DNA from: an uncultured delta proteobacterium
GTDB lineage: Bacteria; Desulfobacterota; Desulfomonilia; UBA1062
Direction: 5' to 3'
DNA length: 64,000 nucleotides
NCBI GenBank assembly: GCA_963798485.1
Contig: CAWCTR010000007.1
Location: 448,001-512,000 of the forward strand
The notes beneath the pieces are model-generated. The model saw nothing but the letters and a program-made list of their open reading frames with translations. It was not told where the DNA came from and made no database searches. Shown here piece by piece: positions 46,247 through 46,421 of this stretch. Both the position numbers and the translations under genes were made by a program. Each line of letters begins with the position of its first letter. The stretch's first letter is position 1.

Positions 46247-46292
46247 TAAAAAACCCATTCACGGCCGTGCTCCTTGCCGGGAATGGGTTTTA
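46247..46292 (-). terminator. Attenuator terminator in the metY leader
   Basis: AAAACCCATTC-C-CGGC / GCCG-T-GAATGGGTTTT stem ending in T6. Confidence 0.85.
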
Positions 46293-46319
46293 TTTGCTGC
46301 GCGTCTGCAGGACTCTCCC

Positions 46320-46421
46320 CTACATGGGCACCCCCCATTCCCTTAAGCGGCACATACACATGCAGCAGCACATGTTCGCGTCTGCAGATGCAGTATGATG
46401 AGTAGGTCTTGCCAAAAGCAT
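46320..46421 (-). CDS. Cys/Met-rich leader peptide (33 aa)
   Basis: MLLARPTHHTASADANMCCCMCMCRLREWGVPM*; RBS GAGG upstream; immediately precedes terminator. Confidence 0.85.
   Translation of the reverse strand: MLLARPTHHTASADANMCCCMCMCRLREWGVPM

Follow-up and report, generated by a model that had tools for sequence, protein, structure and literature searches.

A conserved Cys/Met leader-peptide module, probably a transcription attenuator of sulfur amino-acid genes, in Desulfomonilia and relatives

Leader-peptide attenuation is a textbook mechanism, known in Proteobacteria from the trp and his operons and, in multivalent form, from the thr and ilv leaders of Enterobacteria. Sulfur amino-acid genes are known to be controlled by S-adenosylmethionine (SAM) and S-adenosylhomocysteine (SAH) riboswitches, T-boxes and protein repressors and, for cysteine, by translational small open reading frames (sORFs) in Actinobacteria. 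In mycobacteria, ribosome stalling on polycysteine leaderless sORFs under Cys limitation raises downstream expression across a ribosome-directed regulon; these sORFs are reported to work at the level of translation, with the ribosome-binding site (RBS) of the downstream gene sequestered in RNA structures (10.1101/834739, Canestrari et al.). Cys leaders predicted in Actinobacteria carry Cys runs near the stop codon upstream of cys and cbs genes; they are stated to have no conserved terminator hairpin, and Rho-dependent termination was proposed (PMC1262725, Seliverstov et al. 2005). In Rhodobacterales, uORFC-8-2 upstream of cysS has conserved Cys codons in a stem, a terminator and a U-run, and was proposed to act by ribosome-mediated attenuation responsive to Cys-tRNA (PMC8632094, Brewer et al. 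2021). Here we describe a module on the minus strand of a 64,000-nt stretch of DNA, hereafter the window (GCA_963798485.1, contig CAWCTR010000007.1, positions 448,001 to 512,000), from an uncultured member of the Desulfomonilia (Desulfobacterota). It combines a short open reading frame (ORF) with consecutive Cys and Met codons, an intrinsic terminator and a potential antiterminator, and in carriers where it is intact it quite probably controls sulfur amino-acid genes by ribosome-mediated transcription attenuation.

The anatomy of the module can be read directly from the DNA. A -35-like hexamer TTGACA (46489-46494, minus strand, as are all parts of the module) and a hexamer TATCTA (46467-46472), whose spacing suggests a -10 role, form a candidate leader promoter. 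The Shine-Dalgarno (SD) sequence GAGG (46428-46431) follows and, 6 nt on, the ATG (46421) of an ORF of 33 codons plus TAG (46320-46421, TAG at 46322-46320) that would encode the peptide MLLARPTHHTASADANMCCCMCMCRLREWGVPM. An earlier note on this DNA had reported such a 33-aa minus-strand ORF with its own RBS and eight successive Met/Cys codons, and these are indeed present: the run reads AUG UGC UGC UGC AUG UGU AUG UGC (MCCCMCMC; 46350-46373), and eight consecutive ATG, TGC or TGT codons are expected by chance only ~3e-6 times in the six frames of 64 kb. Starting 7 nt past the last Cys codon, the G-rich putative antiterminator strand GGGAATGGG / GGGAAUGGG (46334-46342) is the exact complement of CCCATTCCC (46287-46279) in the terminator 5' arm, so that the perfect complementarity claimed in the note holds. 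Folds and alignment place a small hairpin, GUAGGG-gagag-UCCUGC (46307-46323), over the leader stop codon. The terminator with its T6, likewise claimed before, lies at 46248-46291 (5' arm 46291-46276, 3' arm 46265-46254, T6 46253-46248); its hairpin by itself (46291-46254) folds at -20.9 kcal/mol, with a 9-nt loop and one mismatch. The competing antiterminator duplex reaches -20.5 kcal/mol, which only 1.1% of 1000 composition-matched shuffles equal.

The module is conserved in 12 distinct versions, found on 14 metagenome contigs, in four other genomes of the family and in a single genome from a different order of the same phylum. A first covariance model, built from three sequences (G000, the genome of the window; G002, of the same genus; and G018, of another genus), recovered the element in 5 of the 52 genomes of the family, which are also the 52 genomes of the order, and in 5 of the 122 genomes of the class. 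A second model, based on 11 sequences, was run on 151 sampled genomes of the phylum (G000 among them) and matched three other genomes, of which only G256 carries a true leader; those in G246 and G169 were rejected as leaders, being terminator-like only and lacking the Cys/Met run. Twenty other genomes of the order of G256 held no further leader, the one extra match being a terminator only. A metagenome scan whose pattern was taken only from the terminator returned 21 loci. Fourteen of these give full-length model matches of 77-147 bits, and in each of them an SD site precedes a short ORF with the Cys/Met run in frame; the other seven are unrelated terminators with no such run. Conservation of mini-ORFs with Met/Cys runs in relatives, on which the earlier note had made its proposal depend, is thus borne out, the run being present in all 14 metagenomic and all five family copies. 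Genome contigs scanned with ATGTGYCGC-N{45,75}-CCRTTCCCGGC yielded at least 119 stretches; among the 80 loci listed, one is a true leader (L047, 'Desulfomonilia bacterium'), identical in sequence to G002. This pattern is too loose, and the range of named organisms is poorly sampled. Within the window's own genome, 69 merged windows with Cys/Met-rich short ORFs included nothing else that resembles a leader and were mostly Cys-rich proteins or off-frame noise.

None of the 12 versions lacks the ORF, the Cys/Met run or the terminator, and each has the potential to form an antiterminator. TTGACA in all 11 aligned homologues is followed at 16-17 nt by TATCTA, which is invariant in 10 and reads TATCCA in L157, and GAGG or GAGGG stands 5-8 nt before the ATG; G256 has the ORF with a weak SD. 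The leader ORF is open over 33-40 codons in all 11, and indels among the versions are multiples of three (18 nt in L157), with the exception of a 1-nt insertion in L168 that shifts the leader stop 9 nt downstream. The runs span 5-9 codons in every version: MCCCMCMC (three versions), MCCCMCIC, CCCKCMC (G018), CCRYMCMC, MCMGMC, CMCMC (two versions), MCMMCIC, MCMMCICMC and CCCMDMRC. Outside the run the peptide is poorly conserved, its N-terminal part diverging freely while the frame stays open, and at homologous positions a Cys may be encoded by UGC in one version and by UGU in another; regulatory codons, not a functional peptide, would be expected to evolve in this way. In G002, the leader peptide MLLSRPTHHIAHASANMCCCMCMCRLRGWGVSM comes with the same promoter, terminator and RBS and is followed by a full 436-aa MetY; the leader of G018 (MRRLKDMHQEAQAVLTIHADGCCCKCMCRPVRLGGSV) is followed by a perfect terminator and a full metY, and that of G256, ending in ...KKCCCMDMRCPWEWGGLLMLN, by a terminator and then metY and cysK.

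The genes downstream of the module all belong to sulfur amino-acid metabolism. An intact metY (O-acetylhomoserine sulfhydrylase/homocysteine synthase) stands behind the leader in G002, G018, G073, G074, L157, L159-type, L168 and G256. The order is metY-cysK in G018 and L174, with cysK assigned by Pfam and NCBIfam in the former and from the ORF N-terminus only in the latter, and again in G256, where cysK was likewise called from the N-terminus only. G073 has metY-DUF2325-cysK (cysK from the ORF N-terminus only), G002 metY-DUF2325-DUF3034, L168 metY plus an NMT1/SsuA-type ABC transporter, and L167 a 77-aa Cys-containing ORF, then metW and metX. The DUF2325 protein (L180 3925-4326, plus strand, between metY and cysK in G073; L177 4721-5149, plus strand, after metY in G002) is a possible, so far unrecognised partner in sulfur amino-acid metabolism. 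The 77-aa multi-Cys ORF of L167 (1469-1702, minus strand), between the terminator and metW-metX, has no Pfam match; a similar start occurs in L166.

Leader-linked MetY proteins form a clade of their own, at least 83% identical within and present in 6 of the 52 family genomes including the broken copy of the window, and the housekeeping MetY clade of most family genomes is 61-67% identical to it. We considered whether leader and metY move as one cassette, and rejected this: the MetY of G256 shares only 57% identity with the leader-linked clade and 55% with the housekeeping copy, so the leader is not confined to a single MetY lineage. In G032 (L012 560-1120; L179), a 325-aa cysK immediately precedes a metY of the leader-linked clade; no leader stands directly in front of this metY, and a divergent Rrf2-family gene lies upstream, which makes an alternative wiring of the same genes.

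We propose that transcription would start at the conserved promoter and that a ribosome would load on the 33-codon leader ORF. When Cys-tRNA, and probably also elongator Met-tRNA, is plentiful, the ribosome would run to the UAG and cover or flank the G-rich segment, so that the terminator can form and end transcription at the U-run. With charged tRNA in short supply, the ribosome would stall early in the Cys/Met run and leave the G-rich segment free to pair with the emerging terminator 5' arm, and the polymerase would read into the operon. The terminators of the homologues fold at -18.6 to -30.7 kcal/mol and are followed by a U-run. In the alignment of 11 sequences, the terminator has 95% of its cells paired, and both partners vary in 2 of its 16 pairs; in the small hairpin, a candidate pause site or spacer, 92% are paired and three of six pairs are invariant. 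Over the two elements together, three pairs vary in both partners, and covariation measures as high as those observed arise in 0-3 of 500 shuffles. In all 11 sequences, pairing of the G-rich segment with the terminator 5' arm is possible, at -16 to -23 kcal/mol, energies matched by 0.1-8% of 1000 composition-matched shuffles. Two registers occur, GGGAAUGG with CCAUUCCC and GGCCGGGA with UCCCGGCC. Nascent transcripts ending at the terminator loop were folded with 29 nt masked to represent a ribosome. With the mask over early run codons, the antiterminator formed in 10 of 11 sequences; with the mask at the stop codon, it was blocked in 10 of 11. In the window leader, a ribosome on run codons 17-23 lets GGGAAUGGG pair with the terminator arm, and one at the stop codon does not.

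Several observations weigh against this interpretation. The earlier note suggested looking for covarying stems in relatives, and for the terminator this is what we see, but covariation of the antiterminator is not significant (204/500 and 286/500 shuffles reach the observed score); its arm could not vary in the sample because the metagenome pattern had fixed the terminator arm. In nascent folds with no ribosome the antiterminator also forms in 10 of 11 sequences, and a trp-type 1:2 protector hairpin is therefore not evident. The minimum-energy nascent fold of L168 has the antiterminator at only one of seven stall positions, and in L167 a ribosome at the stop codon leaves six antiterminator pairs in place. 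Among the equilibrium full-length folds listed with a stalled ribosome, the terminator prevails in G002, L157, L159 and L174, the antiterminator being favoured only in G000, in L166 and at some stall positions of L167, so the switch would have to be kinetic. The stability of the whole 271-nt region is ordinary (z = -1.51; 18 of 200 shuffles fold equally well). A consensus scan for promoters and terminators over 45800-47000 found no terminator-like site, since its loops were limited to 3-8 nt and the hairpin loop has 9 nt, and it preferred another promoter pair, TTTAGA/TAAAAT at 46463-46436, to TTGACA/TATCTA. The Cys/Met run is partly self-complementary (UGCAUG), and such a constraint at the RNA level could help to keep the AUG codons. 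The distribution of the module is sparse, and G032, with a metY of the same clade, lacks the leader in front of it. None of the sequencing runs listed as containing the stretch is an RNA run. Finally, no intact sulfur amino-acid gene stands behind the leader in the window, a point taken up below.

Set beside the systems described so far, the module shares with the classical trp, his, thr and ilv leaders a short ORF with regulatory codons, a terminator with a possible antiterminator, and a place before a biosynthetic operon, and it is possibly multivalent like thr (Thr and Ile) and ilv. It differs in its Cys/Met codons, its longer ORF (33-40 codons) and the lack of a clear 1:2 protector hairpin. 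The trp/his/thr geometry asserted in the earlier note thus stands as regards ORF, run, terminator and antiterminator potential, and falls short as regards the protector. Such a hairpin is not universal among attenuators. With the mycobacterial polycysteine sORFs it has in common consecutive Cys codons ahead of cysteine-related operons (10.1101/834739). Those sORFs are leaderless and translational, whereas here an SD and ~40 nt conserved between the promoter hexamers and the ATG precede the run, which includes Met codons, and the ORF is followed by an intrinsic terminator through which the module, in another phylum, would act; this arrangement is neither leaderless nor of the RBS-sequestering kind. 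From the predicted Actinobacterial Cys leaders it is distinguished by a strong, covarying intrinsic terminator, the antiterminator and the Met codons (PMC1262725). The uORFC-8-2 element has two tandem Cys codons and no Met run, precedes a synthetase gene and belongs to Alphaproteobacteria (PMC8632094). The earlier note knew of no validated Cys+Met leader in this group, and our literature check agrees: full-text papers gave no mixed Cys/Met leader and no metY or metX leader, and an earlier prediction could stand in subscription papers or supplements, which lay outside its scope; a passage search of PMC2965389 and PMC4833913 gave nothing relevant. Its further remark, by which SAM riboswitches or T-boxes would be the usual devices here, suggests a Firmicute and is not supported: the nearest named relative is a metagenome-assembled Desulfomonilia genome (Desulfobacterota), and in this lineage leader-peptide attenuators are to be expected. 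Altogether, the module apparently represents a conserved, undescribed attenuator family for sulfur amino-acid genes.

Which amino acids such an attenuator would sense is less clear. Given that it is real, sensing of both Cys and Met is on balance the probable case, sensing of Cys only a serious but lesser possibility, and sensing of Met only unlikely; taken over all readings of the locus, dual sensing is plausible and stays somewhat short of probable. The alternative that survives best is a narrower form of the attenuator itself and does not exclude it: the same device would respond to Cys only, the AUG codons serving at the RNA level or as neutral filler. Cys is the sole residue common to the runs of all versions, with 2-5 codons in each, and Met varies in number and position, down to a single Met in CCCKCMC of G018. 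In several versions the run also pairs internally, or with a CAUGCA upstream of it, through the UGCAUG palindrome, and the mycobacterial polycysteine ORFs supply validated precedents (10.1101/834739). On the other side, at least one Met lies within the run in 12 of 12 versions, Met outnumbers Cys in G074 (three against two) and equals it in L166 (three each), and the chance share of AUG among codons is only ~1.6%. Moreover, the first gene is mostly metY, and in L167 the operon is metW-metX, which are methionine-pathway genes. Weighing these points, we regard Cys-only sensing as rather unlikely overall.

We turn to the genes behind the leader in the window itself, which the earlier note gave as metY, with an RBS after the terminator, followed by cysK and bioB. 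The GGAG of the former metY RBS region is there (46221-46218), and so is an intact bioB, but the metY start codon with about the first 143 codons is gone, and both metY and cysK are deletion remnants. By Pfam, NCBIfam and alignment, the metY remnant (45348-46220, minus strand) has lost its N-terminal part: the ORF called metY (45348-46262) matches PF01053 only over profile positions 130-379 of 381 and NF006096 (homocysteine synthase) over positions 147-428 of 431, and it is 87% identical to residues 144-436 of the G002 MetY. A BLASTN comparison with G002 aligns 46508-46211 of the window to 2785-3081 of L177 and 46221-45348 to 3515-4391, so that 433 nt are missing, from just past the metY RBS to codon ~144. 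The flanks overlap by the 11 nt GGAGAAAACAA (46211-46221, minus strand), which represents both the region of the former RBS and the codons for E-K-T around position 144 of metY, and we conclude that this was a microhomology deletion. The cysK remnant (44641-45261, minus strand; Pfam and alignment) keeps residues 1-166, which end in a stop codon at 44760-44758, and then a C-terminal tail in the same frame; the PALP profile is matched only over positions 1-154 of 295, and alignment with the CysK of G018 shows an internal deletion of ~116 codons with the stop at the junction. Directly behind it, bioB (43654-44640, minus strand; Pfam Radical_SAM and BATS, TIGR00433 at 370 bits against a cut-off of 225) may be co-transcribed with the leader, as its orientation and spacing suggest; it is not found behind the module in G002, G018 or G073. 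As metY and cysK are deletion remnants, the leader in this genome is a recent relic or, at most, a bioB regulator.

The window also contains what makes the broken pair redundant: a second, intact metY (50462-51742, plus strand) and cysK (51702-52757, plus strand) about 4 kb away, and a further cysK (47854-48831) beside a cystathionine gamma-synthase-family gene (46705-47847). The second metY belongs to the housekeeping clade; the pair lies directly behind nadA (49517-50425), across a gap of 36 nt with no leader. Downstream of bioB, at 42198-42920 (minus strand) and 42917-43555, there is an ORF with a DUF772 transposase domain, and short stretches there match scattered places of the G002 contig in another order, so this region is rearranged relative to the same-genus genome. 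Outside the window, a PF01053 gene at G000:C21:191115-192232 (minus strand) is split into profile parts 1-112 and 147-381 and may be a second damaged gene of Cys/Met metabolism.

It could be argued that the deletions are artefacts of assembling a metagenomic genome and that the real organism has an intact leader-metY-cysK operon, which concerns only the state of the window. The genome is 4.3 Mb in 32 contigs with an estimated contamination of 6.96%, and both deletions are in frame, which is unusual for decay. Still, 11 nt of microhomology is too short for assembly collapse, a stop codon stands at the cysK junction, and a 151-nt contig from a public DNA run (46126-46276, depth 2), which may be that of the source sample, bridges the metY junction with no difference. 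The undeleted form was not seen among the contigs of four runs, whose cover of the locus is patchy and leaves out most of the leader as well as the cysK junction. We consider an assembly artefact unlikely.

Returning to the attenuator in its intact carriers, a still less probable account is that the terminator/antiterminator switch is run by a ligand or an RNA-binding protein, the ORF being coincidental. Sulfur amino-acid genes of other phyla are often under SAM riboswitches or T-boxes, and a conserved small hairpin and G-rich segments could belong to such a device. No Rfam family, SAM riboswitches, T-box and known leaders included, matches anywhere in the window at gathering score, and a permissive search (E <= 10) of 45500-47500 returned only unrelated families, the best at sub-threshold E values of 1.7-7.4. 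There is no large conserved structured domain before the terminator, the stability of the region being near that of shuffles, and SD, start, frame and run are kept in 12 of 12 versions through in-frame indels; we therefore judge a ligand or protein switch very improbable. The weakest explanation, a functional Cys-rich peptide (metal-binding, redox-active or modified) whose gene merely ends in the hairpin while the downstream genes have their own promoter, could appeal to the Cys-rich sequence, the strong terminator and the radical-SAM gene bioB downstream in the window, but it can practically be dismissed, because the sequence outside the run is poorly conserved, the C-terminal residues are encoded by the terminator-pairing RNA segment, only ~30-45 nt without promoter-like spacing separate the U-run from the next RBS in relatives, no maturation or export genes stand beside the ORF, and bioB is not adjacent in G002, G018 or G073.

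The leader may not be the only regulatory layer at this locus. The 4.3-Mb genome has just three copies of the motif CTAGT-N5-NATAGT, and all of them lie at this locus, each ~17 nt after a TTGACA. One copy, as the box CTAGT-N5-GATAGT-AATAGTAGT (46445-46469, minus strand), lies between leader promoter and SD and is a candidate protein-binding operator; the second (~46636-46651, plus strand) precedes the divergent cystathionine gamma-synthase-family gene (46705), and the third (~49013-49028, plus strand) a gene for an Rrf2-family regulator (49053-49493, protein start MKLSTRSRYGVRLML). The motif is probably the operator of this neighbouring regulator, which would then be autoregulated, and with such an operator before the leader, the leader operon would have two control layers.

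In summary, the fullest form of our proposal, a multivalent attenuator that responds to shortage of Cys or Met as an OR-gate, the first of the terminator type to read Met codons, governing a small ribosome-directed regulon in Desulfobacterota lineages and joined to a shared Rrf2-regulator operator, is put forward tentatively. If true, the regulon would comprise metY-cysK, metY with a sulfonate-type ABC transporter, and metW-metX, superimposed on a shared operator of the neighbouring, autoregulated Rrf2-family regulator. A terminator-type leader with Cys and Met codons would add a missing amino-acid specificity to this class of regulators and, if both are sensed, would form a natural OR-gate of compact design that senses how far Cys-tRNA and Met-tRNA are charged. 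The window is a clean example of a regulatory module outliving its operon, owing to the redundant paralogous metY-cysK pair nearby, and in its intact carriers the module would show how sulfide assimilation is controlled in poorly studied anaerobes, the Desulfomonilia and their relatives.

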